Made by a program: the position numbers and the translations under genes. The notes beneath the pieces are model-generated. The model was given only the letters and a program-made list of their open reading frames with translations, made no database searches and was not told the origin of the DNA. Shown here piece after piece: positions 31,352 to 64,000 of a stretch of 64,000 nt of DNA. Position 1 is the stretch's first letter, and every line of letters starts with the position of its first letter. This DNA comes from an uncultured Candidatus Saccharibacteria bacterium. GTDB lineage: Bacteria; Patescibacteriota; Minisyncoccia; Phycocordibacterales; UBA2100. Where the stretch lies: contig CAZYLZ010000001.1 of the NCBI GenBank assembly GCA_964648335.1, forward strand, positions 93,449 through 157,448, in the 5' to 3' direction.

Positions 31352-31755
31352 ACCATCAAGAAAAAGGCATGATCAAGGAAAATCCAAACCTCATAACGCT
31401 CAAAGAAGCGGCAGAAATGTCTGGCTATAGTTCGGACTACATTGGGCAACTGATTCGCAGTGGAAAGTTACCCGGGCAGCAGGTATTCGCCAATGTTGCA
31501 TGGATGACGACGCGCGAGGCAGTCCTCGAATACACACAGAAGGGACGGAGGTCTTCTGTCGGGTCCACGGGCAGCCTGTTCGAAAAGATGTTTTCGATTG
31601 AGCGATTGGTCGCGATCTTCGGGGTTTTCACCAAGGCGGTTATCGGTCTTATGGCGGTGTTCTTGCTTTTTCTGGGCTACGTACTGTCGGTCAGCATCGA
31701 TCACCACATCGAGAAGCAGTACCAGGAGAAACTAGAGCATGCACAGAGCATCTAA
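31339..31755 (+). CDS. small membrane-tethered DNA-binding protein with an excisionase/MerR-type HTH (HTH_17-like) and a C-terminal TM helix
   Basis: ITLKEAAEMSGYSSDYIGQLIRSGKLPGQQVFANVAWMTTREAVLEY fits the Xis-family HTH pattern; TM AVIGLMAVFLLFLGYVLSV; its 3' end overlaps the giant gene 2 start by 17 nt. Confidence 0.65.
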   Translation: MTNLDHQEKGMIKENPNLITLKEAAEMSGYSSDYIGQLIRSGKLPGQQVFANVAWMTTREAVLEYTQKGRRSSVGSTGSLFEKMFSIERLVAIFGVFTKAVIGLMAVFLLFLGYVLSVSIDHHIEKQYQEKLEHAQSI

Positions 31756-34700: not shown

Positions 34701-37700
34701 ATGCGACGACCACTAACGCCACTTCGACGTCGTTCTTTGCGGGCGTCTTGGCAGCGACCTCCGGCACTATTGCCAACATCTTTGGCACCAACGCCACCAT
34801 CACCGCAGCAACTACGACAAACCTTTTCGCGACCACCGCATCGACGACTAATCTCTTCGCCTCGAACCTCACTTTCGCCGGGGGGCAGGGAACGACAAGT
34901 GCCCTTGCCATCACCGGCATCACAAATGGCCTCTTGGGCACCAATGCAAACGGATCAATCAGCGCGACGTCCTTCTCGGGGCCGCTCTCGTTCTTCGGCA
35001 ACACCCTCACCATCACCCAGGCTAATGGCGCTACGAGCGGCTTCCTCGCATCTTCCGACTGGAACGTGTTCAACGACAAGGTGTCATCTACTTCCTTGGA
35101 TACCTCGGCAAAACTTGCCGCGCTCATCACCGACGAGACAGGATCCGGCTCTCTTGTCTTCGGCACTGCACCATCAATCACTGACGGGCGCTTCGCTTCG
35201 ACCACCTTATCTGGAAATGTGCTCATCACCGGCAATGCGACAGGTACGAATGCAACCACCACCACCTTTTATTCCACAACTGCATCAAGTACGAATTTGT
35301 TCACCTCGAATCTCTCCATCGGAAACCTAAATGGCCTTCTCAAGTCGACGAATGGACTGGTTGCCACCGCTATTGCGGGTACCGACTACATATCGAGCGT
35401 CTTCAAGGATTGGAATGTTGTAAACGGCGTTCTCGTACCTACTACCACGATCGGCGTTATCGTATCTGCGTCTTCGACGTTCGCCGGGGGCATCACAACA
35501 AGCAATGCTACGGCGACAAACGCTACGACAACCTCTTTGTTCGCATCTATCGCGTCTTCAACGAGTGCTTTTGCAACTAAGCTCTTTATCGGAAACGGAA
35601 CTTCTACCGGCGTATTTGCATCGAACGGTCTCATTGTCTCGGGATCGACAACGCTCCAAGATTTTGCAGGAGCCAACGCTACAATGACGAATGCGACATC
35701 CTCGTCGTTTTTCTCTTCAATCCTTTATGCCTTCAACGGCAGAATTGGCGATCTCATAGCTTCTACCAGTGCGACGCTAGCATCTACCACCGCCTACGGA
35801 CGGTTTATTACTGGAACTGTGGTCGCGACTTCATCTACCGGCACGTCGACTTTCTCTGGAGCAGTTGGAGTGGGTACTACAAACCCTTCGTATAAGGTTT
35901 CGATAGTTGGGTCTACGACGGCTGCAACATCGGCTACCGGTACCGCAGTCCTCTCCGTCACGAACACCAACAACACCTTGAGCTCGGGAACGAACGTCTT
36001 GCGTCTCAACATCCGCACGCCGTTCGGGACGGCATGCACTTCGGGCACGACATGCCCCCGCTTCATCGAGTATGTCTCGGGTATGGCAAATGGATCAGAT
36101 ACCGGAGGAGCGGGTGTCGGAAGCTTACGCCTCTCTACTGCTGGCACCGGTATCACGCAAACATCGGGCGCCGCAGACTTCGCTGAGTACATGCAGCTCA
36201 ATTCGTCGGCCGATGTCGGAGACCTTGTTTCGCTCAACTCGAGCGGACAGTACCAGAAGGCGGTAGCTGGTCAGTCGCTCATCGGCGTTATCTCTGACAA
36301 TCCGGCATTCGTTGGCAATGCAAACCTCGAAGGTCAGCCAAACGCATACGTCGTTGGGTTTGCCGGCGTCATCCAGACCACCGTGAGCGCAGAGAACGGT
36401 TCTATTAACGCCGGAGACCTCATCGCTGCGACGACGACTCCAGGCTTGGGTGTAAAACTTACTAAGTCGGGATACGCGCTGGGCCAGGCGCTCGAGTCGT
36501 ACTCGGGCCCGGGTAACGGAACCATCAAGGTCCTCGTGATGCCGAAGTACGTCGATGCGGCGATCGTACTCGATAGCTACGGCGGAACGACTGGCGGGAC
36601 ATCGGGCTACTGGAGCCTTGCAACATCGACCGGGGAAGTGAGCCTCGCCTCGAGTACGTATTCGCTCCTAATCTCAGGAAAACTCTCTGCTGCCAACGCA
36701 TCCACCACGAACATCTCATCGACCTATGCGTCTTCGACCCGCGCATTCGTCGGTGCGCTCTCGGTCGGTAACTTGAATGGAGTCTTAAAGGCCACTGGCG
36801 GTCTCGTATCGACGGCGCTCGTCAATCTTACGAGCGAAGTGACGGGCACCTTGCCGGTGTTAAACGGAGGTACCAATATATCGACCCCGACTGCAGCAGG
36901 TGTACTGGTAGGCAACTACGCTGGAGACGGCTATATGCAGGTAGCGACATCGTCTTTGGGATTGACGACGACGAATATCACCGAAGGCACAAACCTCTAC
37001 TACCAGAACGCACGCGTGCTCTCGTACCTCAACACCCTCGACAAGGGCTACTTCTTTGCTAGTACCTCTGCCGATTATTGGAAGACTCAGAACAACTTCT
37101 TCTCGACTACGTCTGTCGATGCCTGGAAACTGGTCAATAACTTCTTCTCGACGACTTCGACCGACTACTGGAAAACCCAGAACAATTTCTTCTCTACGAC
37201 CTCGGCCATGTACTTTGCCGACGCATCATCGACTATCGCCAAGACCTACTCGAACAACACCTTCACCGGAGCGAATGTGTTCAATGGCGATACTACCTTG
37301 GGTAAGGCAACATCATCGTCATTCGCTGTCACCGGCATCAGCTCTGCGCTCGTCAAAGCCAATGCCAATGGTTCGTTCGTGCCGGCGATCCCGGGAGTTG
37401 ATTATGCTGCGGCGAACGCATCGACCTTCGGGCAGACATTCGAGATTGGAGCCGACGGGTTCCTGGCCCCGACGTCGTCCATTGTTGTTCGACTCCCGAA
37501 TGGATTCGTCTCGCAGGCATCGTCGACGGTCGATGGAAATCTCACTGTCACGGGATCGCTTGCTGCTGGAAACGCGACCATGACTAACGCGACGACAACG
37601 AGCCTTTTTGCATCCGTCGCATCTTCGACCAACGCCTTCTTCACCCGCCTCATCACTGGCAACGCCACCTCGACCGGCCAGTTCGCTGCAGCCAACCTCT

Positions 37701-40700
37701 CGGTAAGCGGCTCCACGACGCTCCAGAACGTTTCGGCAGTGAACGCAACCACGACGAATGCGACCACCACCGGCAGCGCCTACATCGCGAATCTCTCGCT
37801 CGGCTCGGCACTCACCGCTTCAAACGGCGGTACTGGCATCTCGGCTCCTGCAGCAGCTGGCATCCTCCTGGGCAACTACGCAGGCGGCGGCTACCAGCAG
37901 CTCGCAACATCCTCGCTCGGCCTCTCTACTACCGACATCACCGAAGGCACAAACCTCTACTACCAGAACGCCCGTGTCTTGACCTACCTCGACACGTTCA
38001 ACAAGGGCTACTTCTACTCAACAACGTCAACTGACTACTGGAAGACCCAAAACAATTTCTTCTCAACCACCTCGGCAGATGCCTGGAAGCTCGTGAGTAA
38101 CTTCTTCTCTACCACCTCCTCACAGTACTTCTTGTCGCAGAACCAGGGAGCCGCGTTCTCGACCACGTCGGCCATGTACTTTGCCGACGCATCATCGACT
38201 ATCGCCAAGACCTACTCGAACAACACCTTCACCGGAGCGAATGTGTTCAATGGCAACACGACCTTGGGCAAGGCGACCACCACATCCTTTGCCATCACCT
38301 CGGTGCCTGCCGCCATCCTCAAGACCGATGCAAACGGCTCCGTCATCCCGGCGATCGCCGGCGTCGACTACCTCACGGGCAGCCTCTACGGCAAGTCATT
38401 CGAGATCGACGCATCGGGCTACCTCGCACCGACCACCTCGGTCACGGTGCGTCTCCCGAGCGGCTTTGTCTCCCAAGCATCGTCGACGGTCGATGGAAAT
38501 CTCACCGTGACCGGTAACGTGACTGCCGCAAACGCCACTGTAACTAATGCGACCTCGACATCGTTGTTCGCCTCGATTGCTTCGTCGACGAGCGCTTTTG
38601 CCACGCGTTTGTTCGTCGGGAATGCGACGGCGACTGGGGTGTTTGCAGCCAACGGCCTCATCGTATCCGGCTCGACGACGTTGCAGAATTTTTCGGGTAA
38701 CAATGCGACCACTACGAACCTGTATGCCGTAACGGCATCTACGACAAATCTCTTCGTATCGAACGGCACTATCGTTCGCTCGACTACCACAAACGCGACA
38801 ACAACGACCAGTTTCGCAACTACTGCTTCGTCGACTAATCTTTTCGCTTCGAACTTCTCACTTGGCAACCTCACGGGAATACTCAAGGCAACTGCGGGTA
38901 CGGTGTCGACCGCGCTCGTGAATCTGGCGACCGATGTCACGGGCATCTTGCAGGTGGCAAACGGAGGCACCGGCTGGGCAGCGGTGCAGGCGGGATCGCT
39001 CTTGTATGGAAATGGATCGGGTAGCTTGGCTACTACGACACAGGGCAGCGCAGGCCAGATGCTCGCGTTCTTGAACGGCGTGCCGACGTGGGTCGCGACG
39101 ACCACGTTCTCGAACGGCCTTACCTATGCCAATGGAAATGTCACGCTCTCTTCGCAAGTCGCGCTCACTAACGCGTCTTCTACTGCGGTATCTGCCAATG
39201 ACTATCTTTCGGTTGGTCGAACAGCGACGACCACAATCCGTGGCGAAACGAACGCAACATCTACCTTTGCTGGTGGTATCCAGGCAACCGCACTCAACCT
39301 TACGGGTGCTGCGACATCTTCTGCCTCGGGTGGATTCAATCTCACAGCCGGGTGTTTTGCAGTGAACGGGACCTGTCTCGGAAACGCGCAACCAGGAACT
39401 AATGTTGTATTGACTGCGGTGCGCAATTACACGACAACGCAACAGTGGACGGTCCCGTCAAACCTCGTGTATGCAGTGGTCGAAGTGTGGGGTGGTGGTG
39501 GAGGAGGAGGAGACGGAGACGGTACCGGAGACGGTACCGGCGGCGGCGGCGCAGGCGGTTATGCATCAAAGACGTACACGGCGACCACGTTGGTCGGAAC
39601 TACTTCGATCCAGGCGCTTGTTGGTGCCGGCGGTGCAACGACAACGAGCGCGACCGGCAGTACTGGCGGTACCTCAAACTTCGGTGGATACGCCACCTCG
39701 ACTGGCGGTGCAGGCGGCGTCCGTGCAAATGGTGGCGAAGGCGCGGGAGGAGCCGGCGGGGTCGGCTCTGGAGGCGATATTAACCTGGCAGGAGAACCGG
39801 GTGGTCTGGGCGATACGACGATGGCAAACCAACAAGGTAACGGTGGTTCCGCGCCTCGCGGCGGTAACGGCGGCCTTGGAGGAAATCAGACCACGGGTAA
39901 TGGCGCAGTGGGTGGTACCTGCGGTGGCGGTGGCGGTGGCGCCGGTGGTGCGGCAGGAGGCGGCGGTACTGGTTGCATAGTCATCTATGAATACACGGCC
40001 ACTAACGTTGCACTCGGAAACGGCAGCGTAAATTCCGGATCGACCGGTCAGGTTGCTTACTATAACGCTGCTGGGCAGGCGGTCACGGGCTCGTCGATAC
40101 TATATATAGACAGTGTAAACGGTCGCGTGGGAGTCGGTTCGACCACTCCGGCCGCCGCCTTGGGTGTCTCGGGCGACGCATTCATAAACGGACGGGTGAC
40201 AGCGTCGCACCTGACTGCAACAGGTACCTTGTCGGTCACTGGGTCCACGACACTCCAAAACTTTACAGCGGGAAATTCGACCACATCTAATGCAACCTCG
40301 ACCAATACGTTTGCCACGACGGCATCGTCGACAAACCTTTTTACATCAAACTTTACCTTGGGTGGTCTTACCGGGATCCTCAAAGCAACTGCGGGTCTCG
40401 TCTCTGCATCTTTAGTAGACCTCACCACCGACATCACCGGCATCCTCCAGGTAGCAAACGGCGGAACCGGATGGGACAACCTTGTCGCCGGAACACTCCT
40501 TACCGGCAATGGCTCGGGCAAGGTGGCTACCACCACGATCGGATCCTCGCTCCAGATCTCGGGCTCGTCTCTTGGTCTCAATCTCTCGAATCCGAACATC
40601 TGGACCGGTCTCCAGACTTTCACCAACGCGTCGACCACCTTTGTCTCCGTCCTTACTAAGGCGTCGTTCGGATCGACCGCCACCACCACCATCGACTCGG

Positions 40701-43387
40701 CAGGTAACGTGGCGGTGGCGGGGAACTTGAACGTCGCCGGTATCACGCTTCTCGGACAGGCAACTACCACGAACCTTCTGGTAACCGCATCGACTACTTT
40801 GCAGAACTTCACTGGACAGAACTCGACCACGACCAACGCCACTTCGACGACGTTGTTCGCCAACACCGCATCGACCACAAATCTCTTTGCATCCAACGGC
40901 ACTATCACGCGATCGACCACCACGAATGCAACTACCACTTCCTTGTTTGCGAACACGGCGTCTACGACTGATCTCTATTCGTCCAACAGCATCATCACCC
41001 GTGCAACCACGACAAACGCGACTACCACATCGCTCTTCGCGACCGTGGCGTCCTCTACAAATTTATTTGCTTCTAACTTCTCGCTCGGTAATCTTTCGGG
41101 CATCCTCAAAGCGACCGCAGGCGCCGTATCGACGTCGTTGGCAGACCTCACCACCGACATCACCGGCATCCTCCAGGTAGCAAACGGCGGAACCGGATGG
41201 GACAACCTTGTCGCCGGAACACTCCTTACCGGCAATGGCTCGGGCAAGGTGGCTACCACCACGATCGGATCCTCGCTCCAGATCTCGGGCTCGTCTCTTG
41301 GTCTCAATCTCTCGAATCCGAACATCTGGACCGGTCTCCAGACTTTCACCAACGCGTCGACCACCTTTGTCTCCGTCCTTACTAAGGCGTCGTTCGGATC
41401 GACCGCCACCACCACCATCGACTCGGCAGGTAACGTGGCGGTGGCGGGGACACTCGCCGTAACTGGGAACACGACATTGGCTGCGGCAACGACCTCGAAT
41501 TTACTCGTAACCGGATCAACAACTCTCCAAAACTTTACTGCTCGAAACGCGACGACAACGCAGGCCACGACTACGACACTCTATATCTCTTCTGCGCTAC
41601 GAGGGGCAGGGCTCAGTGCCTGTGCAAATGCTACCGATAAGCTTTTGTGGGATACAGCGACAGCGCAGTTTAGCTGTGGAACAGACGCGGGTGCCGGTAC
41701 TGGAATCGCAAACTTGGGTGCTGCAGGACAATTGCAGAACGGCGCATCTCAGACGTTTGCGACCTCGACAGACACCAATATTGGTCTCACGATCACGTCG
41801 CTCGCTAACGTGCATACGTTCACCACCATCTGGAACGGCATATTATCGGTGGCGCGTGGCGGCACTGGTTGGGCCACTATTCAGGCTGGTACCTTGCTCA
41901 CCGGTAACGGAAGCGGCGCGGTGGCGACGACCACTATAGGATCGTCCCTCCAAATCTCGGGATCTACGCTTGCACTCAACCTCACTAATGCGAATGTCTG
42001 GACGGGATTGCAGACCTTTGCAAATGCATCAACAACTTTGTTCGAATCCGTGACGCAATTTGCGCAGACCATACAGTCGACTTCGACAAACGCGCTAGTC
42101 ATCAAATCAAATCTTAGTTCGACTGCCGGCCTTACCTTGGGCGGCACCACCACACCGCAGATACTCGGCATTGATACGCTGAATACCCGCGTCAAGATCG
42201 GTACCGGCGGTGCTACGCCCGTTTTGTTCGTGCTCGACACCAAGAATACGGCAGGAGATCCGACAGGAGTCGATGGTGCGCAGTATTACAACTCGAATAC
42301 GAGCGATTATCGCTGCTTTAGCGGAACGACCTGGAGGAGCTGCGGCGGCTTGGCAGCGAGCTCGACAGGAGACGTGCAGTTCAAGAACGTCGATGGATCG
42401 TTTACCGCGTCTTCGAACTTTAACTGGAGCATGGCCAACAACGGCCTCACTATCACTGCATCATCGTCATCGCAGACGACCGATCTCTTTACTATCGCGT
42501 CGAGTACCGGAGCGCCAATGTTCGCTGTCAGCAGCAAAGGTGTTCTAGAGTTGGCCACGACTACTGACCCGGCGGCGCCTGCTGCGGGACAGCTCAATAT
42601 ATATGCGAAAAATATTGCCGGACGCATCATGCCCAAATGGATCGGCCCAAGCGGAGTCGATACTCCATTTCAGGCGAACCTCGGATTCAATCGCGTTTCT
42701 ATGATGATGCCGGCAGGAGGCACAACTGCGACTACATTCGTCGGCGGATTAGGCTCTACCTTTACCAACGTTGTGACAACCGCAGCAAACCCAACGCCTA
42801 CCACCGCAAGCTTACTGACATCGACACGTCGCGCAACATTCAGCACAGGTACGACCCTCAATACCATAACCTCACACCGCCAGAGCACGTTGCAGGTTAC
42901 GCGCGGGAATTCTTCGAATATCGGCGGCTTCTTCTATACGATACGATTTGGCACTTCGGTAACTCCGGCAGGTAATCGCGTGTTCGTCGGTCTTTCGGAT
43001 TCGGTGGCAGCACCTGCCAACCTCGATCCTTTGGTCACCGGCACTGGAATAGGTCGTGTGGGCATGGCAATTAATGCCAACACAGGCAACTGGAGTTTTG
43101 TGCACAACGTGTCCGGTACTGCGCCGACAGTCTATAACCTTGGTGCTAGTTTTCCCGTTGATAACACCAGTCTCTATGAGCTTATTCTTTTCTCTAAACC
43201 AAATGACACTGTCATAAGTTATCGCGTGAAGAACCTTGCGACGGGTGCAGAGTTAGCCAGTACGACGCTTTCAACCAACATTCCGGCCAATACAACTTAT
43301 TTAGCACCACAGTTCTGGATGGTAAACGTAGCTGCTGCCATCGCCACCTTCGATTTCGGTGGCTGGTACCTCGAGAGCGACCAATAA
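31739..43387 (+). CDS. giant secreted repeat protein (3882 aa): signal peptide, many nested tandem modules, a glycine-rich low-complexity segment, and a C-terminal jelly-roll-like domain
   Basis: Uninterrupted ORF; signal peptide ..LPLPAYAAVGV. Repeated GA(I/V)(L/V)LG.Y.G.GY(M/Q)Q(I/L)ATSSLGL.TT(N/D)(V/I).EG(S/T)NLYYQNARV(L)(T/S)YLD four times; STTS(A/T)DYWK(S/T)QNNFF about 10 times; VANGGTGW..L.AG(T/S)LL(T/Y)GNGSG..ATTT four times. Confidence 0.9.
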   Translation: MHRASKPSRAIFRALLRWQDLFAVLALSSTLLSPVLVLPLPAYAAVGVPRIINNQGRLMDANGSLLGGAGTDYCFKFSLFDDASVGSGSQVWPSVAPSIMTVPVKQGIYSVGVGDTDQGGDVLDYNFQDNDAVYLNVEVAAKVGATCAVGDGAETFENLSPRQRIFASGYAVNAATVGGFTPAQQATGNQIPVLSAGNLILAASNPFINATSTNALTLQGGGSVSGDIRFFNAGNKLTSAGNLTLTGSVTASGLSSFTNLLIGGLSTTTIQGTTSGTSTIQGFLNVLGTNSTSTFSGSIATPFLNLTGAGATSTAASGFDIAAGCFSIGGVCVGGVNSITANADNTLVVDPTGGNAIVGLNLSNANIWTGLQQFANASSSIFSAGKAFFGATATTTIDSAGNVDVAGTLDVSGNTTLAKATSTSFAITSVTNTLLKTDANGSVVPAVPGSDYLVSAVTSLGAAGQAQTGATQTFATSTTVTNGLTAAITITSSGNVHTFTPSVTGTLSALGGGTGIANPSAGGILIGSYVGGAYQQIATSSLGIRTTDVQEGSNLYYQDARVNSFIDASTTIPKTFSANVFSGLTTLNGGLTVGSLNGPLQANNGVVSATSSIGVAYGGTGVSTAPAYGQLLVGNAASGYSLVATSTLAIALTDTTGTLAVNRGGTGITSPTAGAIVLGDYSGTGYMQIATSSLGLLTTNVAEGSNLYYQNARVLTYLDSFDKGYFYSTTSADFWKSQNDFYSTTSADYWKSQSNFFSTSSVDFWKSQTNFYSTTSADYWKSQNSFFSTTSSDYFLSQNRGSAFSTTSATYFADASSTIAKTYSNNTFTGVNVFNGDTTLTNATTASLAVTGVTSSLLKTNADGSVVPAVAGVDYAAANASTFGKTFEIDASGYLAPTTSVTVRLPSGFVSQASSTVDGNLTVTGNLTAGNATVTHATSTSFFASVASSTNAFFTRFVTGNATATGAFAAANLAVTGSTTLQNVTAQNATTTNATSTSFFAGVLAATSGTIANIFGTNATITAATTTNLFATTASTTNLFASNLTFAGGQGTTSALAITGITNGLLGTNANGSISATSFSGPLSFFGNTLTITQANGATSGFLASSDWNVFNDKVSSTSLDTSAKLAALITDETGSGSLVFGTAPSITDGRFASTTLSGNVLITGNATGTNATTTTFYSTTASSTNLFTSNLSIGNLNGLLKSTNGLVATAIAGTDYISSVFKDWNVVNGVLVPTTTIGVIVSASSTFAGGITTSNATATNATTTSLFASIASSTSAFATKLFIGNGTSTGVFASNGLIVSGSTTLQDFAGANATMTNATSSSFFSSILYAFNGRIGDLIASTSATLASTTAYGRFITGTVVATSSTGTSTFSGAVGVGTTNPSYKVSIVGSTTAATSATGTAVLSVTNTNNTLSSGTNVLRLNIRTPFGTACTSGTTCPRFIEYVSGMANGSDTGGAGVGSLRLSTAGTGITQTSGAADFAEYMQLNSSADVGDLVSLNSSGQYQKAVAGQSLIGVISDNPAFVGNANLEGQPNAYVVGFAGVIQTTVSAENGSINAGDLIAATTTPGLGVKLTKSGYALGQALESYSGPGNGTIKVLVMPKYVDAAIVLDSYGGTTGGTSGYWSLATSTGEVSLASSTYSLLISGKLSAANASTTNISSTYASSTRAFVGALSVGNLNGVLKATGGLVSTALVNLTSEVTGTLPVLNGGTNISTPTAAGVLVGNYAGDGYMQVATSSLGLTTTNITEGTNLYYQNARVLSYLNTLDKGYFFASTSADYWKTQNNFFSTTSVDAWKLVNNFFSTTSTDYWKTQNNFFSTTSAMYFADASSTIAKTYSNNTFTGANVFNGDTTLGKATSSSFAVTGISSALVKANANGSFVPAIPGVDYAAANASTFGQTFEIGADGFLAPTSSIVVRLPNGFVSQASSTVDGNLTVTGSLAAGNATMTNATTTSLFASVASSTNAFFTRLITGNATSTGQFAAANLSVSGSTTLQNVSAVNATTTNATTTGSAYIANLSLGSALTASNGGTGISAPAAAGILLGNYAGGGYQQLATSSLGLSTTDITEGTNLYYQNARVLTYLDTFNKGYFYSTTSTDYWKTQNNFFSTTSADAWKLVSNFFSTTSSQYFLSQNQGAAFSTTSAMYFADASSTIAKTYSNNTFTGANVFNGNTTLGKATTTSFAITSVPAAILKTDANGSVIPAIAGVDYLTGSLYGKSFEIDASGYLAPTTSVTVRLPSGFVSQASSTVDGNLTVTGNVTAANATVTNATSTSLFASIASSTSAFATRLFVGNATATGVFAANGLIVSGSTTLQNFSGNNATTTNLYAVTASTTNLFVSNGTIVRSTTTNATTTTSFATTASSTNLFASNFSLGNLTGILKATAGTVSTALVNLATDVTGILQVANGGTGWAAVQAGSLLYGNGSGSLATTTQGSAGQMLAFLNGVPTWVATTTFSNGLTYANGNVTLSSQVALTNASSTAVSANDYLSVGRTATTTIRGETNATSTFAGGIQATALNLTGAATSSASGGFNLTAGCFAVNGTCLGNAQPGTNVVLTAVRNYTTTQQWTVPSNLVYAVVEVWGGGGGGGDGDGTGDGTGGGGAGGYASKTYTATTLVGTTSIQALVGAGGATTTSATGSTGGTSNFGGYATSTGGAGGVRANGGEGAGGAGGVGSGGDINLAGEPGGLGDTTMANQQGNGGSAPRGGNGGLGGNQTTGNGAVGGTCGGGGGGAGGAAGGGGTGCIVIYEYTATNVALGNGSVNSGSTGQVAYYNAAGQAVTGSSILYIDSVNGRVGVGSTTPAAALGVSGDAFINGRVTASHLTATGTLSVTGSTTLQNFTAGNSTTSNATSTNTFATTASSTNLFTSNFTLGGLTGILKATAGLVSASLVDLTTDITGILQVANGGTGWDNLVAGTLLTGNGSGKVATTTIGSSLQISGSSLGLNLSNPNIWTGLQTFTNASTTFVSVLTKASFGSTATTTIDSAGNVAVAGNLNVAGITLLGQATTTNLLVTASTTLQNFTGQNSTTTNATSTTLFANTASTTNLFASNGTITRSTTTNATTTSLFANTASTTDLYSSNSIITRATTTNATTTSLFATVASSTNLFASNFSLGNLSGILKATAGAVSTSLADLTTDITGILQVANGGTGWDNLVAGTLLTGNGSGKVATTTIGSSLQISGSSLGLNLSNPNIWTGLQTFTNASTTFVSVLTKASFGSTATTTIDSAGNVAVAGTLAVTGNTTLAAATTSNLLVTGSTTLQNFTARNATTTQATTTTLYISSALRGAGLSACANATDKLLWDTATAQFSCGTDAGAGTGIANLGAAGQLQNGASQTFATSTDTNIGLTITSLANVHTFTTIWNGILSVARGGTGWATIQAGTLLTGNGSGAVATTTIGSSLQISGSTLALNLTNANVWTGLQTFANASTTLFESVTQFAQTIQSTSTNALVIKSNLSSTAGLTLGGTTTPQILGIDTLNTRVKIGTGGATPVLFVLDTKNTAGDPTGVDGAQYYNSNTSDYRCFSGTTWRSCGGLAASSTGDVQFKNVDGSFTASSNFNWSMANNGLTITASSSSQTTDLFTIASSTGAPMFAVSSKGVLELATTTDPAAPAAGQLNIYAKNIAGRIMPKWIGPSGVDTPFQANLGFNRVSMMMPAGGTTATTFVGGLGSTFTNVVTTAANPTPTTASLLTSTRRATFSTGTTLNTITSHRQSTLQVTRGNSSNIGGFFYTIRFGTSVTPAGNRVFVGLSDSVAAPANLDPLVTGTGIGRVGMAINANTGNWSFVHNVSGTAPTVYNLGASFPVDNTSLYELILFSKPNDTVISYRVKNLATGAELASTTLSTNIPANTTYLAPQFWMVNVAAAIATFDFGGWYLESDQ
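39485..39990 (+). repeat. glycine-rich low-complexity coding segment (GGGGGGDGDGTGDGTGGGGAGG ... GGGGGGAGGAAGGGGTGC) within giant gene 2
   Basis: ggtggtggtggaggaggaggagacggagacggtaccggagacggtaccggcggcggcggc and following; G-rich but with no G-X-Y periodicity. Confidence 0.8.
40417..40724 (+). repeat. copy 1 of a 308-nt perfectly identical direct repeat inside giant gene 2 (726-bp period)
   Basis: Base-for-base identical to 41143..41450 on manual comparison; flanks diverge. Confidence 0.9.
41143..41450 (+). repeat. copy 2 of the 308-nt perfectly identical direct repeat
   Basis: Identical to 40417..40724; encodes DLTTDITGILQVANGGTGWDNLVAGTLLTGNGSGKVATTTIGSSLQISGSSLGLNLSNPNIWTGLQTFTNASTTFVSVLTKASFGSTATTTIDSAGNVAVAG in both copies. 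Confidence 0.9.
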
Positions 43388-58106: not shown

Positions 58107-60035
58107 TTAAAGAGGAGTATTTGTCTGAGCCGCCGGAGTGTGAGGGGCCATTTCCGCAATGAAACGAGTCGACTGCAAATACGCAGTTCCGCCTACTGTT
58201 TGAGATGGTGTAATTTGGCTGCCGTACGCCTCAACGGCGGGCATGGTACGCGCATGTGTGAGTGCCAAGTAGCCAACCCTACCAGCCGGCGGATCGGCTT
58301 TGACTCGAGTGATACCCACATAAAACAAGCGTCGGTCCTCTTCAAGCTTTGCTGCCTGTTCATCGTTGGTTAAATCGGGATTGGCCGTTGCAGGAAAGAG
58401 ACCCTCAACGCATCCGACGATGAACACAAACGGTGCGCTCAACCCCTTACTTTTATGCAAACTCATGATTCTCACTTCTGAGACAGCCGATGGCACCTCT
58501 GGATGGGTAATAGCTTCGTACAAGGCCTCATAAAGTTCTTGAGGCGTTTCCAGACTTTCTTTGGTTTGAGCGACCGCTTCACCGAGAAGCGCGGTCTGCG
58601 GGTTTTCGGGCAGCCATTGAGAAATGAATTGACCTAGGTCGGCCGCGGCCCGCAGAGAATCTATTTCTGTTTTAATTACATTGAACCGGGTCACGAGCGC
58701 TCCGGCATACGGAATGTTAAGAGTGCCTGTCGCCATGGCACTTAGAGCCTGCCATGGCGACGTGTGATTTGCCCTTACATGATTCATAAGCCGTCGATAC
58801 GCATTCGTCCTCCAGTCCGTCGCTCCGTAGCCAAGCAGCCAACGCAAAGCAATTCTATCCTCATTGTCCAATAGCAGCTTCAGGCTCGCGAAGCGTTCCT
58901 GTGCCGCGAGCGTGTCGAGGCTCGACTCAGCGTAATAAGACTTCGTAGGGATATTTAGACCTCTTAAATGATTGAAGATGGGCGTTGCAAACGCTTCACG
59001 TTGCGTGAGTACGATGATATCACTAGGTGCGACACCGCTCGCTACCAACGCCGATATTTTTTCGGCAACTGCCTCCGTTTCTTCTGTGGCGCTTCTATAT
59101 TGTCGTATCACAACTTCACCAGCGCCATTTTCTGCCCTCTCTGTCATGAGACGACCCGCAATTCGATCAGTATTGCGCGCAATGAGAGCATTCGCCATTC
59201 GCACGACAGTGGTCGGACATCTTCGACACTCTTCGATCGCATGGTCGTCCGCAGTATGTACAGTACTCCAATCACGAATACCTCCGGGATGCGCGTGCTT
59301 GAAGCTATAAATAGATTGATCGTCGTCGCCAATAACGCAGAGCGAGCCATTCTCGCCAAGAAAATGCAGAGCGTCCTGCTCGGCACGGTTCAGGTCTTGG
59401 TATTCATCCACCAGTAGGTGGCTAAATTCGTTTCTTTCCGGAGCGTCGGGATTATCTCGCAAGTACTGGTAAAGATGCGGTATTAACTCATCGACGAGCA
59501 TCGCTTTATGAAAACGAAGCCAGGTTACCAGGTCGTCCACAAACGACTGCTCGGCCGGAGAGCGAGTGTACCCGGGTTCTTGAGTTTGCAAACGCGCCCA
59601 CGCCGCAGCATACGCTTTTATGAGACGTTTGCGTTCGCGTTTATTGCCATGCGTAATACTTAAATCTGCCAACAGTGGCTCCATCTCGTATTTGTTGAGT
59701 GGTCTCGGTACGCGGCCCAACGCAGTGAGGACATGGTTACGCATGAGTATAGACATCGCCAGGCTATGGAGCGTCTTCGCTTTCAAGCGATCGGCACCAG
59801 CCACCCCTAGAGATAGAAGTTCACGCTGGATATCTTCAGCAGCAACTCGAGTGAAGGTTACGGCTAAAACACGTGCAGGATTGATACCCTCAACCTCAAG
59901 TATGCGCGCGACGCGACGCTTCATTGCGAAGGATTTGCCAGTACCGGGGCCAGCCAAGACTCGAATGCGCCTGTGAGTTGACCCTGCAATGCTATGCGCT
60001 GATGTTCCTGTGTTTAAGCCGTCGTCCCACGCCAT
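58107..60035 (-). CDS. UvrD/Rep-family superfamily 1 DNA helicase
   Basis: Motif I LAGPGTGKSF, motif II LLVDEYQDLN, motif III VIGDDDQSIY, motif V SLHKSKGL, motif VI YVGITR. Confidence 0.9.
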   Translation of the reverse strand: MAWDDGLNTGTSAHSIAGSTHRRIRVLAGPGTGKSFAMKRRVARILEVEGINPARVLAVTFTRVAAEDIQRELLSLGVAGADRLKAKTLHSLAMSILMRNHVLTALGRVPRPLNKYEMEPLLADLSITHGNKRERKRLIKAYAAAWARLQTQEPGYTRSPAEQSFVDDLVTWLRFHKAMLVDELIPHLYQYLRDNPDAPERNEFSHLLVDEYQDLNRAEQDALHFLGENGSLCVIGDDDQSIYSFKHAHPGGIRDWSTVHTADDHAIEECRRCPTTVVRMANALIARNTDRIAGRLMTERAENGAGEVVIRQYRSATEETEAVAEKISALVASGVAPSDIIVLTQREAFATPIFNHLRGLNIPTKSYYAESSLDTLAAQERFASLKLLLDNEDRIALRWLLGYGATDWRTNAYRRLMNHVRANHTSPWQALSAMATGTLNIPYAGALVTRFNVIKTEIDSLRAAADLGQFISQWLPENPQTALLGEAVAQTKESLETPQELYEALYEAITHPEVPSAVSEVRIMSLHKSKGLSAPFVFIVGCVEGLFPATANPDLTNDEQAAKLEEDRRLFYVGITRVKADPPAGRVGYLALTHARTMPAVEAYGSQITPSQTVGGTAYLQSTRFIAEMAPHTPAAQTNTPL

Positions 60036-60121: not shown

Positions 60122-61009
60122 TTACCCCGGTTTTGTACGTAGCTGACTAGTCACGTCGTCAGTTCTGTCACTACCAATCAGTGGTAACCCCCTCAGTGAA
60201 TCGAAGTTCTTTTGTAGTCGCGGCTCGCTTAACTTATGCCATTTCATTAAGAGCCAGCCCCGCCACAAGTAGATTTTGCTACGGATGGGATCGTTGAACG
60301 AGTGGTGTTCTAGGGAAAGGTCGAAATAAGTCTCTACGACATATGCGTACGCCACTTCGCGCCGAAACAGCCCAATGGCTTGATGCAGAGATTTGAGACA
60401 GTCTTTCCTAACCTTCCGTAAATGCGTGCGAGACTTCTTGGTCATAATGAATAGGTCATCCATACCGAGCCATCGAGAAAGCCGGAGGTTGCCGCTGCGG
60501 GCACGCCATGGACGACCCGGCACAAAGTAATGCAGCTTTAACTGTAAATAATACTGACCGTAGATTTCGCCCGCTGTGCGGTGGCAGTAGGCCACAGCGC
60601 CCACGTACGGTTTCTTGTTGATGAGCTTGTAACCCATATCAATGATGGCCTGTGTATTGCGCCATGTTGTCTGGAGCTTTGTATCAAGTTCCTTGTGCCG
60701 CTTCATCTCTGTCTCAAGACCAAATTCAAACCAGTCGATAGCCATCGTTATGTTCTTCATTTCCCCGATGTGCATCCCGGCTTCCGCAATCTCCGCCTTA
60801 GCTCGCATGAGACAAAACTGCGCAGCCATCTCAGGTCGGCCTGCTTTATCCGCAATAACTGCTCCGACTTCTGTCGCATGTCGAATCTCTGCTCCGTGAC
60901 GCAGCGAGTTAAGTCCAGAAATAAGTTCGTTCATGGCGTTAACCTTCTCATCCGGTGACATGCCGGAATCAGTGATGCTTTTTACGGTGTTTTTGAAGTT
61001 ATCGTCCAT
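60122..61009 (-). CDS. hypothetical protein; the longest ORF extends to 61075 and would overlap the upstream gene by 77 nt, so an internal start (MDDNFKN at 61009) is more likely
   Basis: ORF between the DUF4238-like gene and the helicase on the same strand; no recognisable motif. Confidence 0.5.
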   Translation of the reverse strand: MDDNFKNTVKSITDSGMSPDEKVNAMNELISGLNSLRHGAEIRHATEVGAVIADKAGRPEMAAQFCLMRAKAEIAEAGMHIGEMKNITMAIDWFEFGLETEMKRHKELDTKLQTTWRNTQAIIDMGYKLINKKPYVGAVAYCHRTAGEIYGQYYLQLKLHYFVPGRPWRARSGNLRLSRWLGMDDLFIMTKKSRTHLRKVRKDCLKSLHQAIGLFRREVAYAYVVETYFDLSLEHHSFNDPIRSKIYLWRGWLLMKWHKLSEPRLQKNFDSLRGLPLIGSDRTDDVTSQLRTKPG

Positions 61010-61964
61010 ACATTTTTCGATATCGCCACCAGTCGCGGAGCTTATACGCAAAAATCCGGGTCTCGTTTTTGACAATTTTCCATAGGAAAAGTGGGTCGAG
61101 GGGCACTCGACTAAACCATATCCATTTTTTCTCCGGATGCGGCGAAATGAACTCTTTGGTTGCGTGAGAACGCGTCATGCGATTGAGCATGCTCTCGACA
61201 TTGCCATTGCTCACGTATGAGTACCCGCGAAAGTTGGCCCACGTAAACATAACGGTAATTTCCGGACTAAGAGCGAGTGTCAACTGCACATTTTGCTGCC
61301 CAAAGCCAGGGCCGTAGAACCTCTGCCACTGCAGATCGGGGTTGAAAAAAACGCACGGGTCATCGGAGGTAATGAACCAATGTTTGTTTGGGTCTTTAAT
61401 GCACAGGAACGCTACGCTCATCTGCATTAGGATGTTGGCGATATACGGAATACTATCCACCATTTGGATTTTGTGCGCGTCTTTTTTGTATTCGATCCAT
61501 TGACGCACCTGCGGTGAGTCGTCGACGCCGCGCGTGCGCGCCATCTGTGTGCCGTGGTCGATGAGTTGCTGGATGAAGTTCTCCTGATTTTGCTTAAATC
61601 GCGGAGTGCGCACCATCTGCGCCGCAACGAACGCACAGAGATAGGCATGCTCCATTTCAGTAAGCGGCTTTTTTTGCTTGATCTTGTGTCTAAAGACGTA
61701 CGCATATTTTGATTCGATAGTGGAGAGGCTTCGCTCGATAGTGAAGTCTTTCTCTCCATTGAACTCGAACGTGTAGAGATGCGTTTCGGTAAAAATGTTT
61801 TTAGGTGCTCGCTTGTGAGAGTTTTTGCCGTCCTTATCGAATACCCACAAGTACGGCTCTTGGCCAGCCGGGGTACTAGGGTCGGTGAATTCCGACAAGT
61901 AGCAACGCGGCACAAAGTGCTGATCGCGCGGGCCTTTATTTTTCTTTTTGTTCTTCCTAGCCAC
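60999..61964 (-). CDS. DUF4238-like protein
   Basis: N-terminal QHFVPRCYLSEF matches the HxVPxxYLxxF opening motif recalled for DUF4238; not verified by search. Confidence 0.5.
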   Translation of the reverse strand: MARKNKKKNKGPRDQHFVPRCYLSEFTDPSTPAGQEPYLWVFDKDGKNSHKRAPKNIFTETHLYTFEFNGEKDFTIERSLSTIESKYAYVFRHKIKQKKPLTEMEHAYLCAFVAAQMVRTPRFKQNQENFIQQLIDHGTQMARTRGVDDSPQVRQWIEYKKDAHKIQMVDSIPYIANILMQMSVAFLCIKDPNKHWFITSDDPCVFFNPDLQWQRFYGPGFGQQNVQLTLALSPEITVMFTWANFRGYSYVSNGNVESMLNRMTRSHATKEFISPHPEKKWIWFSRVPLDPLFLWKIVKNETRIFAYKLRDWWRYRKMYGR

Positions 61965-62262
61965 GAGGTGATTATAGTGCTCGAGAGGCTATTAATTCAA
62001 CATCAGGCCACTACAGCGCTCTAAGAGGTATGCTTTCGCACACCTCCGGTGCTCTTTTTTTGGCGGTGCATTCGGGTTAAGTGCCCGTGCCTACCAATCA
62101 TTGTAAGGGTTTTTGAGGAACTTTAACACTAGCGGATTTGAGGCATGTGGGTCGGTCTCAATAGACACGATAGACACTATAAAAAGGATTGAGAAAGTGT
62201 CTTGTGTGACCGTGGAGGTATTTACACCTTTGACCACCTAGATACTTTTCTATATATGCAGA

Positions 62263-62643
62263 TTAAAAAGGAATATCTCTCTCCTCTTCGTCACTCACCT
62301 CAACCTCGACATCAGTAAGCTCTTCATTTTTAACATCGGCAGAGTATTTTACAATCGCGTCTTTATATAAACTATCAACTTCGGTTTTGAATTGACTTTT
62401 ATCACTCAAAAATTGAGTGAATTTTGAATGTATGTTCTCGTAAATTACTTGATGAGCCTTATTGCCCACAAGACTTTCGTCGTAAGCGTCCAACTCAAAA
62501 TCTTCTGTTTCTGCCGCATTTAATAACGCGAGTAGACCATCTTTGTTGATTTTATCTATCTCTTGGTACGTATTTCCGTCCCAGTAAAAACCCTTATTGT
62601 TTTCAATCTTTAAGTATTTCATATCATTTCTTAAAACTTTCAT
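62263..62643 (-). CDS. small acidic hypothetical protein, 20-nt overlap with the upstream ATPase gene; low-GC
   Basis: 126 aa, C-terminal VEVEVSDEEERDIPF; about 40% GC against about 60% elsewhere in the window. Confidence 0.55.
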   Translation of the reverse strand: MKVLRNDMKYLKIENNKGFYWDGNTYQEIDKINKDGLLALLNAAETEDFELDAYDESLVGNKAHQVIYENIHSKFTQFLSDKSQFKTEVDSLYKDAIVKYSADVKNEELTDVEVEVSDEEERDIPF

Positions 62644-64000
62644 ATAGACCCTTTCTGGTTTTGTAGGCCTCTTGACCGGCCTCCAATGTATCCAATAGAG
62701 TATCGTAACTACCTATCGATTCACTACCGTCTGCTGTTTTGAATTCTTTATCTCCTGGCGACCCAGAAAAAACTCTGTATTCGTCTTTTCCATTAATAAT
62801 TTGTCTTTGCGTGTATAACACATAATCAGGCTCCATAAGCATACCTACCGTATTGTTATGCGTTACAACAATGACTGGCATTTCTTTTGAAATGTCCTTT
62901 ATTTCCTTATTGACGTTTTTCTTTAGAAATAAGTTGTCAAAAGAAGATTCTGGCTCATCTACTAACAACATGTCGTATTGACGCGCATCCTGCAAAACTC
63001 TAAGTAAATTAAATTCAGCCATCTCTCCACCAGATACCTTTTTATCGTACTCGTTCAATACCTGATAAGTAACTTTACAAAAGTATCTATACAATTCACT
63101 TTTCTCAAGACCTTCCATATTTTTTAACTCTTCAAGGAAAAGAATGGGAGAGGCATACTTACTGAATGCAGCGGTAAAAGACACCTGCTTCCCAGATTCA
63201 TCGTGCAGACCTTGTGCCCCTGTGTATGGACTAGCAACTGCTCGGATTTTGAATTTGCCAAATACTTCTGTCTCTCTAATCTCAGATTCCTGTTTTATCG
63301 CATTCGCAATAGCATTAAATCTTCTCGTGCGCTCTCGCTCTAACTTTACTTGGTAAAAATCTATATCGCCATCATCAATTTTGGGACTGGAAGTCTTGTT
63401 CTCAAGTTGTTTTCTTGTTTCACTGACCAACTCATTTATCCACTCTTTCTTTAGGCGTACCTCCAATATTTGTTTATATTGTTTTGTTAGATCATCAAAT
63501 AGATTTTGTAGCTCCTCAGATGTAACATATTTATTGACTGTGTTTTTGTATGTGACACTTTTTAATATCAACCAGACCGCCTTGAGTAAGCGTTCTAATT
63601 CTTTCTCTTGATTGTGCCTGATCTGGTATTTGGTTTCTTTAAATAGAACTGCTCTAGAAAATTCATCTTGGAGTTTCTCGCTTGATGCATAATCTAACAA
63701 TGTCTCAATATATTTTCCTAATTTGTGACTAGTTGCTCTTCGATCTATTTCGATTATATCGTCCACGACGCTACGAAACTCTTTTAGATACTCTTCTCGG
63801 ACTGCACTTTTGTCCTTCTCCACACGCTTATTGAATTTCTTCTCGTCGTCTCTTATCAAATCAAACTGCTCAATATATTTAATAGATTTTTCCTCGGTAT
63901 CAAAAATATCCCTCAATTTATTCAAAAGATACGTTTTACCAGAAGACCTGCCACCAACAATAATGTTCAGGCCACTTGATAATACTTGACCATTATTGAA
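62624..64000 (-). CDS. ABC-like AAA_21/OLD-family-type ATPase (5' partial; the N-terminus continues beyond the window end)
   Basis: Manual translation of the reverse complement of 64000..63926 is in frame and open: FNNGQVLSSGLNIIVGGRSSGKTYLLNKLR, i.e. Walker A GGRSSGKT at 63932-63955. Downstream: signature-like SGGEMAEF, Walker B MLLVDEPESSFD (about 62950-62980) and VIVVTHN; the TTG at 63925 in the ORF track is internal. Confidence 0.8.
   Translation of the reverse strand, partial: FNNGQVLSSGLNIIVGGRSSGKTYLLNKLRDIFDTEEKSIKYIEQFDLIRDDEKKFNKRVEKDKSAVREEYLKEFRSVVDDIIEIDRRATSHKLGKYIETLLDYASSEKLQDEFSRAVLFKETKYQIRHNQEKELERLLKAVWLILKSVTYKNTVNKYVTSEELQNLFDDLTKQYKQILEVRLKKEWINELVSETRKQLENKTSSPKIDDGDIDFYQVKLERERTRRFNAIANAIKQESEIRETEVFGKFKIRAVASPYTGAQGLHDESGKQVSFTAAFSKYASPILFLEELKNMEGLEKSELYRYFCKVTYQVLNEYDKKVSGGEMAEFNLLRVLQDARQYDMLLVDEPESSFDNLFLKKNVNKEIKDISKEMPVIVVTHNNTVGMLMEPDYVLYTQRQIINGKDEYRVFSGSPGDKEFKTADGSESIGSYDTLLDTLEAGQEAYKTRKGLYESFKK

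Follow-up and report, generated by a model that had tools for sequence, protein, structure and literature searches.

PDC-M49 in a Saccharibacteria contig: a candidate defence cassette with a predicted PHP-ATPase fusion and a small acidic partner

We have studied the end of low guanine-plus-cytosine (GC) content in a stretch of 64,000 nucleotides from an uncultured Candidatus Saccharibacteria bacterium (contig CAZYLZ010000001.1, positions 93,449 to 157,448), referred to below as the window. Two overlapping genes are read there from the minus strand. Gene A encodes an ATPase and runs off the end of the window, and gene B encodes a small acidic protein. A preliminary description of this DNA had proposed an OLD/AAA_21-type ATPase with a small effector, in the manner of the anti-phage modules PARIS, Septu or Gabija. 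Our analysis leads elsewhere. The low-GC end consists of two genes that were acquired horizontally as a cassette and represent the PADLOC candidate system PDC-M49, and protein A is predicted to be an N-terminal PHP phosphoesterase fused to an SMC/RecN/Rad50-like ABC head. The features of the two genes are listed below. Conservation in A was scored over an alignment of 63 homologues of 45–84% identity, in which the residues called invariant do not vary.

Positions 62624 to 64000, minus strand: 3′ part of gene A (PDC-M49A), codons 230 to 687 of 687; predicted ABC head of SMC/Rad50 type, interrupted by some 180 amino acids of helical insert; GC 0.365.
Positions 63932 to 63955, minus strand: Walker A motif GGRSSGKT of A, residues 245–252; G245, R247, S248, G250 and K251 invariant.
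Positions 63023 to 63034, minus strand: ABC signature SGGE of A, residues 552–555; invariant, and aligning with the LSGGQ region of ABC proteins.
Positions 62948 to 62971, minus strand: Walker B motif and start of the D-loop of A, MLLVDEPE, residues 573–580, followed by SSFD.
Positions 62858 to 62860, minus strand: H-loop histidine of A, H610, within VTHN; T609, H610 and N611 invariant.
Positions 62263 to 62643, minus strand: gene B (PDC-M49B); 126 amino acids from the ATG at 62643, or 119 from the family-conserved ATG at 62622; GC 0.344.
Positions 62266 to 62334, minus strand: predicted disordered acidic tail of B, residues 104–126, with the terminal DIPF at 62266 to 62277.

The change in base composition is marked. 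The final 2-kb bin has a GC fraction of 0.374, whereas the other 31 bins have a mean of 0.551 with a standard deviation of 0.022, giving z = −8.1. The fraction stays between 0.34 and 0.39 across 400-nt windows from 62200 to 64000. The low-GC end had thus been correctly recognized in the preliminary description, although its figure of about 60% for the remainder was too high: the 2-kb bins outside the island range from 0.49 to 0.585, and positions 1 to 58000 taken together have a GC fraction of 0.555. The junction between the island and the adjoining gene, which encodes a DUF4238 protein, is identical in independent Logan and JGI assemblies (L001–L003), and the island is therefore not a chimera of assembly.

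Read on the minus strand from 64000 to 62624, the frame of gene A comprises 458 codons and a TGA stop, and is open to the window edge with no stop upstream. The gene is therefore cut at its 5′ end, as had been stated, and the Walker A, SGGE, Walker B and VTHN motifs quoted in the preliminary description are all present in it. The missing part was supplied by a full-length protein (P0001) of 687 amino acids, which is 100% identical across the part encoded in the window and is encoded on a 168,164-bp NCBI contig together with other proteins of the window. The 229 residues of A that lie outside the window start MRMKKIDFHIHT, and it is in this segment that a PHP domain is predicted. The retrievable contigs that carry the exact cassette (L001, L002, L004 and those of the cluster members P0121–P0124) all break within gene A, leaving partial products of 433, 502, 551, 569 and 622 amino acids. 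For these samples this suggests that coverage drops, that the strains are heterogeneous, or that a repeat lies within A or immediately upstream of it.

A scan with the PADLOC profiles matched both proteins to PDC-M49. Full-length A matched the PDC-M49A model (PDLC04680) with E = 1.8e-236, residues 3–686 aligning with positions 1–673 of the 674 in the profile, and the fragment encoded in the window matched it with E = 6.7e-150 (positions 223–673). B matched the PDC-M49B model (PDLC04682) with E = 1.2e-32; this model has 97 positions and covers only the conserved core of B. Gene order, adjacency and overlap are also those of PDC-M49. Judged by these profile matches, the locus belongs to a candidate that is already catalogued in PADLOC-DB v2, and we find no structural difference from it; the copy in the window falls in a sub-clade with a long-tailed B, in which its closest named relatives are metagenome-assembled genomes (MAGs) of Patescibacteria. 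PDC stands for phage defence candidate, a term given to cassettes embedded in BREX, DISARM or type I restriction-modification (R-M) loci (bioRxiv 10.1101/2024.01.29.577857). These candidates were predicted by 'guilt-by-embedding' and entered PADLOC experimentally untested (Payne et al., same preprint).

What is the nature of protein A? An AlphaFold model built from the alignment had a mean predicted local distance difference test score (pLDDT) of 87.3. When the C-terminal 450 residues were compared with the Protein Data Bank (PDB) by Foldseek, the matches were RecN (4ad8, E = 1.4e-6) and the heads of MukB, JetC, Smc, cohesin and Rad50, the SMC-type heads having E-values of 1e-6 to 1e-4 and probabilities of 0.96–1.0. 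The OLD/AAA_21 assignment is not supported, and the Pfam families detected include neither AAA_21 nor AAA_15. The Pfam SMC_N model scores 27 bits, below its cut-off of 40, and a search of the PDB by sequence gave only weak transporter matches, over the signature and Walker B region. In addition to the residues listed above, Q274 and the run D577, E578, P579, E580, S581, S582, F583 and D584 are invariant. Some 300 residues separate Walker A from the signature motif, and include the helical insert of about 180 residues (approximately 282–465), whose helices do not exceed 41 residues. No CxxC hook, long coiled coil or hinge is visible in this insert. The protein terminates about 75 residues past the H-loop.

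The N-terminal region of about 200 residues resembles other known folds. Its Foldseek matches are the PHP domain of PolC (E = 7.8e-5, root-mean-square deviation 5.1 over 195 columns), that of the Pol III alpha subunit, and RNase AM (7ug9, E = 3.6e-4), with a probability of 1.0. Of the PHP-motif residues, H78 is conserved in at least 90% of the homologues, while D7, H9, H11, H46, E71, H128 and D175 do not vary. The last ligand motif of a canonical PHP domain is DxH, where A has D-A-R with an invariant R177. The assignment as PHP rests on the predicted fold, on these conserved motif residues, and on the presence of PF02811 in relatives of A with 43–46% identity. The invariant motifs of ATPase and PHP domain are both counted in favour of a predicted catalytic competence of A. 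No Toprim domain was found in full-length A by Pfam, PADLOC or fold search. The preliminary description was right that no nuclease domain lies inside the window; the predicted PHP domain sits just past its edge, at the N-terminus of A, and would account for the nuclease that was missed. Its proposal that the small protein is the effector is unlikely, the probable effector being the PHP domain at residues 1–225 of the ATPase itself. Two apparent relatives with a different N-terminal domain (P0377 and P0447) seem to owe it to gene calls that ran together with ParA or membrane genes, and were rejected as effector swaps.

Gene B, which had been correctly described as an acidic open reading frame of 126 codons overlapping the end of the ATPase gene by 20 nt, encodes a protein of pI 4.42. 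The N-terminus conserved in the family, MKYLKI, begins at Met8 (ATG at 62622–62620), a single nucleotide past the stop codon of A (TGAtATG). Whichever start is used, A and B are translationally coupled. B has no Pfam domain, and about 120 homologues were found in a word-indexed search. Its model (pLDDT 80) comprises a three-strand meander, a short helix, a helix of 40 residues and a tail disordered from residue 104, with pLDDT below 50 for residues 104–117. The fold has no match in the PDB (best E-value 2.9), and neither a catalytic motif nor a DNA-binding family or fold was detected.

Homologues of B take two forms. The short form (95–112 amino acids) stops soon after the long helix. The long form (115–140 amino acids), to which the window protein belongs and whose named members are mostly Patescibacteria MAGs, continues into a variable and strongly acidic tail. 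The C-terminal residues are PF in 77 of the 84 long-form proteins and IPF in 67, compared with PF in none of the 39 short-form proteins. The commonest long-form endings are PEDIPF, PDDIPF and SDDIPF, and the window protein ends in ERDIPF. SSB, the bacterial protein that binds single-stranded DNA, has the C-terminal tip DFDDDIPF or DDDIPF, and its IPF is bound by SSB-interacting proteins such as ExoI, RecO and DnaG (PMC10143822; PMC5872125). At the level of sequence, the variable acidic linker of long-form B and its fixed [DE][DE][IVL]PF end carry the signature of this SSB C-terminal (SSB-Ct) tip. No report of such a tail on a defence protein was found in the literature searched.

Are the two genes always found together? 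A scan of GTDB with one genome per species yielded at least 392 loci of A, and pairing was assessed in the best 80, which span Patescibacteria, Bacteroidota, Pseudomonadota, Planctomycetota, Bacillota and others. A homologue of B lies directly 3′ of A in all 80, one being frameshifted and two cut by the ends of contigs. A and B are thus an obligate pair. No third gene is conserved beside them, the neighbours varying on both the upstream and the downstream side. An exhaustive profile search gave 279 clusters of A (at 50% identity) with E = 1e-30 or better, nearly all of 665–700 amino acids. In phage genomes no full-length homologue of A was found; two Listeria phage records match the PHP region alone, with 38% coverage and 24.5% identity.

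The pair is evidently mobile. The closest locus of the GTDB scan, in a Giovannonibacteria MAG (L007), is 82% identical. A copy in another MAG (L087, GCA_964596955.1), with an A 91% identical, lies in an island of 35–37% GC within a genome of 46–53% GC, and its neighbours are entirely unlike those in the window. DNA homology between the window and L087 is 88% and extends from the window edge to 62061. The homology ends at GCACCGC(C)A in three contexts (the window, L087 and L004), and this common end defines the right end of the cassette, about 200 nt past B. Upstream of A in L087, positions 1093–1896 hold a 67-amino-acid gene of HTH_17/MerR (excisionase-like) type (E = 3.2e-11), which is absent from L007, and a 180-amino-acid protein with a sub-threshold VRR-NUC match. 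DUF5652 and LemA genes occur as neighbours in related contigs. By tblastn, full-length A-B pairs of 37% identity were found on 53 plasmids, mostly of E. faecalis. On the E. faecalis plasmid pTEF2 the pair, WP_002367824/WP_002367825, lies between recombinase/transposase genes, and its neighbours are DUF4062, a RelE/ParE pair and a gene of the 'abortive infection family'. In one pTEF2 record (L098, NZ_CP046110.1, 27573–29898) A and B are annotated as 'histidinol-phosphatase' and 'hypothetical protein', and are flanked by resolvase and Mu-type transposase genes. An ABC-type ATPase paired with a small acidic protein, as in the preliminary description, is supported, and the island is foreign DNA.

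The right end of the cassette is the most conserved part of its DNA. Its features in the window are the following.

Positions 62061 to 62262, minus strand: non-coding 3′ flank, right end of the mobile cassette; GC 0.436.
Positions 62134 to 62155: 22-nt core of the flank, CCGACCCACATGCCTCAAATCC, then a −10-like TACAAT box, then GGGCACTTAACCCGAATGCACCGCCA.

Over the 202 nt past B the window and L087 are 94.1% identical, compared with 87.8% for A and 86.3% for B. The exact 22-nt core was also found in four otherwise unrelated low-GC metagenome contigs (L091–L094), in all of which the spacing is fixed: the core, then CAAAAAAGC..TAnAAT, then GGGYACTTAACYCGAATG..CCG. Copies of the element lie at L087:4361–4567, L091:12988–13103 and 13749–13833, L092:120–234, L093:1417–1531 and L094:3185–3299, so that L091 carries two, about 730 nt apart. 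The element in L094 begins a few nucleotides from the end of a gene pair encoding a methyltransferase and a protein of 228 amino acids; to the eye, the methyltransferase resembles those of Eco57I type, and the two genes together resemble a type II R-M module. The flank gave no Rfam match at a meaningful score, no match to viral contigs and no significant RNA secondary structure (z = −0.6 and −0.5, with a consensus stem of only 4 pairs), and an nhmmer search found no copies near other PDC-M49 loci. A cassette bounded by an integron attC site was considered and rejected, there being no hairpin fold in the 3′ element and no integron integrase to be seen. Nor was a conserved 3′ flank of the PDC-M49 cassette found reported in the literature searched. 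From its layout, the flank may be an outward-facing promoter, or a protein-binding or recombination junction common to cassettes of defence type.

Several known systems resemble PDC-M49 in part. The nearest validated relative of PDC-M49A is Ppl (Gao 2020), a single-gene ATPase with a PHP domain, of unknown mechanism, which impairs plaquing by T7 and is countered by Bas63 gp130 (PMC11482910). Like A, Ppl/TrlF (NF045780) has ATPase and PHP in one chain, and in the TrlF protein that we tested the PHP domain is N-terminal, as in A. This protein, of 879 amino acids, matches Ppl with E = 3.2e-35 and PDC-M49A with E = 4.8e-17, and tblastn with A finds its PHP and ATPase ends; the LmuB model of Lamassu also matches it weakly. 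A is some 200 amino acids shorter and is always accompanied by B, whereas Ppl works as a single gene. In the reverse direction A had no match to the PADLOC Ppl model at E = 0.01 or below, and scored 35.4 bits with TrlF NF045780, for which the cut-off is 350. On these profile comparisons PDC-M49A is best described as a shorter sister family of Ppl/TrlF with an obligate small partner of its own. The gene for this TrlF-family protein, on an IncC plasmid of Klebsiella pneumoniae (L099, NZ_CP099747.1, 148288–152072), is embedded in a type I R-M operon, with hsdR and hsdS on either side. The gene after it encodes a 387-amino-acid 'RNA-binding domain' protein with a weak match to models of the pAgo and Aga N-terminal domains.

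PDC-M49 shares with Mre11-Rad50/SbcCD and RecN an SMC-type head with a helical insert that is linked with a metal-dependent phosphoesterase nuclease. There the nuclease is calcineurin-like and a separate protein, whereas in PDC-M49 it would be a PHP domain and is fused; the insert of A, about 180 amino acids without long coiled coil, zinc hook or hinge, differs too, and PDC-M49 is sporadic and mobile, not housekeeping. Lamassu (LmuA/LmuB/LmuC) and Wadjet (JetABCD) also combine an SMC-like ATPase with small accessory subunits and a nuclease effector, and JetC is among the top fold matches of A. In PDC-M49, however, the effector is fused to the ATPase, and the only small partner matches neither a kleisin nor a KITE fold. 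Among the PADLOC models that matched the window proteins at E = 0.1 or below, there was none for Lamassu or Wadjet. With the OLD family (GajA of Gabija, AriA of PARIS and the retron-Eco8 effector) A shares an ABC-type ATPase and a nuclease in a defence setting, together with weak P-loop and Walker B similarity. It differs in having no detected Toprim and another subfamily of ATPase, and B is neither a UvrD helicase (GajB) nor DUF4435 (AriB).

Gabija, PARIS and Septu were examined individually, and none was retained. GajA models match over the N-terminal part only (E = 6e-6 to 3e-4), and there is no Toprim. AriA of PARIS matches 63 residues around Walker B only (E = 4.9e-7), and B matches neither AriB nor DUF4435. 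PtuA of Septu gave E = 0.026, and no HNH was found in B or among conserved neighbours.

We consider it reasonably probable that A and B form an anti-phage, or anti-mobile-genetic-element, nuclease-ATPase system. This reading is based on the PDC-M49 match, the predicted domain structure, the invariant catalytic motifs, the obligate pairing, the mobility, the R-M context, the SSB-like tail and the kinship with Ppl. In the Giovannonibacteria locus (L007) type III Mod and Res genes lie directly upstream, the Res gene reaching the start of A. Elsewhere the neighbours of the pair include type I S subunits, Res-type helicases, YgjP-like proteins, MADS, SoFic, Fic, RadC, DUF932 and AriA-like proteins, and in the window DUF4238 and a GajB-like helicase are close by. 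The general proposal of an anti-phage module is thus upheld by the PDC-M49A/B match, the R-M neighbours and the adjoining DUF4238 gene, but the module is not PARIS, Septu or Gabija.

A number of observations weigh against such a role. The neighbourhoods of A-B are heterogeneous, and many of the flanking genes are ordinary non-defence genes. No experimental test of PDC-M49 was found in the literature searched, and its status as a candidate stems only from genomic association. The Pfam PHP model fails to reach E = 0.1 on A, and with DxR in place of DxH the chemistry of its PHP domain may be different. The helical insert is far shorter than the coiled coil of SMC or Rad50 proteins. The short-form B proteins of most phyla lack the tail motif, which cannot therefore be essential to the core mechanism. 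Finally, we infer that A binds B, and likewise what substrate is attacked (DNA or RNA), what acts as trigger and whether the outcome is abortive.

How might a nuclease-ATPase defence system of this composition work? We suggest a mechanism modelled by analogy on Rad50-Mre11/SbcCD, RecN, Lamassu and Wadjet. The A-B complex would be a Lamassu in miniature, or an Mre11-Rad50 in a single chain. Two heads of A would engage around ATP on meeting a feature typical of phage or plasmid DNA that is invading or replicating, for instance ends or the intermediates of replication or recombination. Once the heads have engaged, the fused PHP domain would be free to hydrolyse phosphodiester bonds of nucleic acid, and the invader would be destroyed or the infected cell arrested. 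B would be a regulatory or adaptor subunit that silences or targets A. In the clade of the window protein, its DIPF tail might plug into the network of SSB-interacting proteins, or mimic SSB or DNA, for sensing or auto-inhibition.

A rival explanation is that the pair is a toxin-antitoxin or addiction module that stabilizes mobile elements, with A as a toxic nuclease, B as a labile acidic antitoxin, and any anti-phage effect secondary. Two tightly coupled genes with a small acidic partner would fit this, as would the occurrence on conjugative or mobilizable plasmids, next to a RelE/ParE pair in one case, and the patchy distribution with cassette-like mobility. In classical type II toxin-antitoxin systems, however, the antitoxin gene usually comes first and its product binds DNA. 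B lies downstream of A and has no detected DNA-binding family or fold, and a two-domain ATPase-nuclease of 687 amino acids is atypical as a toxin. Adjacency to R-M systems, or embedding in them, suits defence better. We regard the addiction module as unlikely, while noting that the two roles are not mutually exclusive.

Returning to defence, the SSB-like tail can be read in three ways: as a decoy by which SSB-docking proteins are captured, as an auto-inhibitory mimic of DNA or SSB acting on A, or as a hook that recruits a host SSB-interacting enzyme. The first can be combined with the properties of the 3′ flank, in a joint reading whereby B is an SSB decoy that switches on A, and the cassette moves by means of a 3′ junction element shared with R-M cassettes. 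Phage or plasmid proteins that normally dock on host SSB, such as recombinases, helicases or factors that target SSB, would then bind the tail; alternatively, the tail would fill the DNA site of A until a real substrate appears. In either case, capture or release of the tail would turn on the PHP nuclease and ATPase, and the shared 3′ junction element would be one found with R-M cassettes of genomes related to Patescibacteria. Guard-type sensing through an SSB decoy was not found described for bacterial immunity in the literature searched. Taken as a whole, this combination is speculative and we think it rather unlikely.

The tail bears also on a role in DNA repair or recombination, in which A-B would be an accessory for maintenance of the element, processing ends in the manner of SbcCD or RecN with its PHP nuclease, and recruited through B to SSB-coated DNA. 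The best folds, those of RecN, Rad50 and SMC heads and of a polymerase-type PHP domain, are in keeping with this, and an SSB-Ct-like tail would suit genome maintenance. A protein bearing the SSB-Ct tip would nevertheless compete with SSB, not be recruited by it (PMC10143822). The pair is also sporadic and horizontally transferred (GC z = −8, several contexts, plasmids), and it has no link to repair or replication operons while repeatedly adjoining R-M and abortive infection genes. A repair accessory is accordingly an improbable explanation.

The module might alternatively be of OLD, Gabija, PARIS or Septu type, with the small protein as effector. These systems have the ABC-type ATPase fold in common, and in the P-loop or Walker B regions A does show weak matches to GajA, AriA and PtuA (E = 5e-7 to 3e-2). 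The PDC-M49A and PDC-M49B models score some 150 to 230 orders of magnitude better, however; searches of A and B detected no domain of Toprim, DUF4435 or HNH type, and the nuclease-like domain is fused to A, while B has neither a catalytic motif nor a fold match. This makes the OLD-type assignment very improbable.

That A is the nucleotide-binding subunit of an ordinary ABC transporter, as names in the JGI annotation ('ABC-type dipeptide/oligopeptide... ATPase') and weak nucleotide-binding-domain matches over the signature and Walker B region would have it, is hardly credible, given an ABC_tran score of 22.9 bits (below the Pfam cut-off of 25), the PHP fusion, the spacing of about 300 residues between Walker A and signature, SMC-type fold matches that outrank transporter ones, and the lack of any conserved permease, membrane partner or binding-protein gene nearby. 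The preliminary description had allowed that the completed gene might prove to be such a subunit, or a housekeeping SMC-like ATPase without defence context, and it is neither.

For the window itself these results amount to routine annotation of a candidate defence island. PDC-M49, however, is a widespread two-gene module, present in many phyla and on Enterococcus plasmids. This work provides a domain-level model of it, in which an SMC-type head carries a predicted PHP nuclease; a connection with Ppl, a validated system of unknown mechanism; and evidence for obligate pairing and cassette-like movement. If the defence reading is true, a branch with a PHP effector would join the SMC-like immune systems (Wadjet, Lamassu, Rad50-like), and PDC-M49 might reveal the way in which these systems are tied to the hub of SSB interactions, which several other defences monitor. 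The tail of B that resembles the SSB tip provides a concrete experimental handle, and pTEF2 is a well-studied enterococcal plasmid whose PDC-M49 pair offers a convenient experimental model.

The genes that follow the cassette on its 3′ side lie on the same strand, and are as follows.

Positions 60999 to 61964, minus strand: DUF4238 protein, 321 amino acids; 49% GC (fraction 0.49); PF14022 with E = 2.9e-35, PADLOC DUF4238-Pers with E = 3.3e-11.
Positions 60122 to 61075, minus strand: open reading frame of 317 amino acids (295–309 according to gene callers), overlapping the 3′ end of the DUF4238 gene.
Positions 58107 to 60035, minus strand: UvrD/GajB-like superfamily-1 helicase, 642 amino acids; UvrD-helicase with E = 5.8e-39, GajB model with E = 3e-47; GC 0.52.

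The DUF4238 gene adjoins the cassette but falls outside it. The family is defence-associated, one of its members having been shown to protect E. coli against T7 (preprint of Rousset et al.). The 317-amino-acid protein, which has no Pfam, PADLOC or NCBIfam match, accompanies DUF4238 in L001–L003, L089 and L090, and may be its partner. Copies that group with the helicase at 90% identity are found elsewhere in different surroundings, in L095 and, beside a large serine recombinase, in L096 and L097. In these three contigs the helicase is followed by a protein of 388–395 amino acids with no Pfam match, a partner that the copy in the window lacks. The UvrD/GajB-like helicase appears to be a mobile and possibly defence-related gene in its own right, and the region from 58.1 to 64 kb looks like a mosaic of mobile, defence-associated genes. 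Further into the window, two giant open reading frames on the plus strand, at 129–18128 (5999 amino acids) and 31739–43387 (3882 amino acids), fill nearly half of its length.

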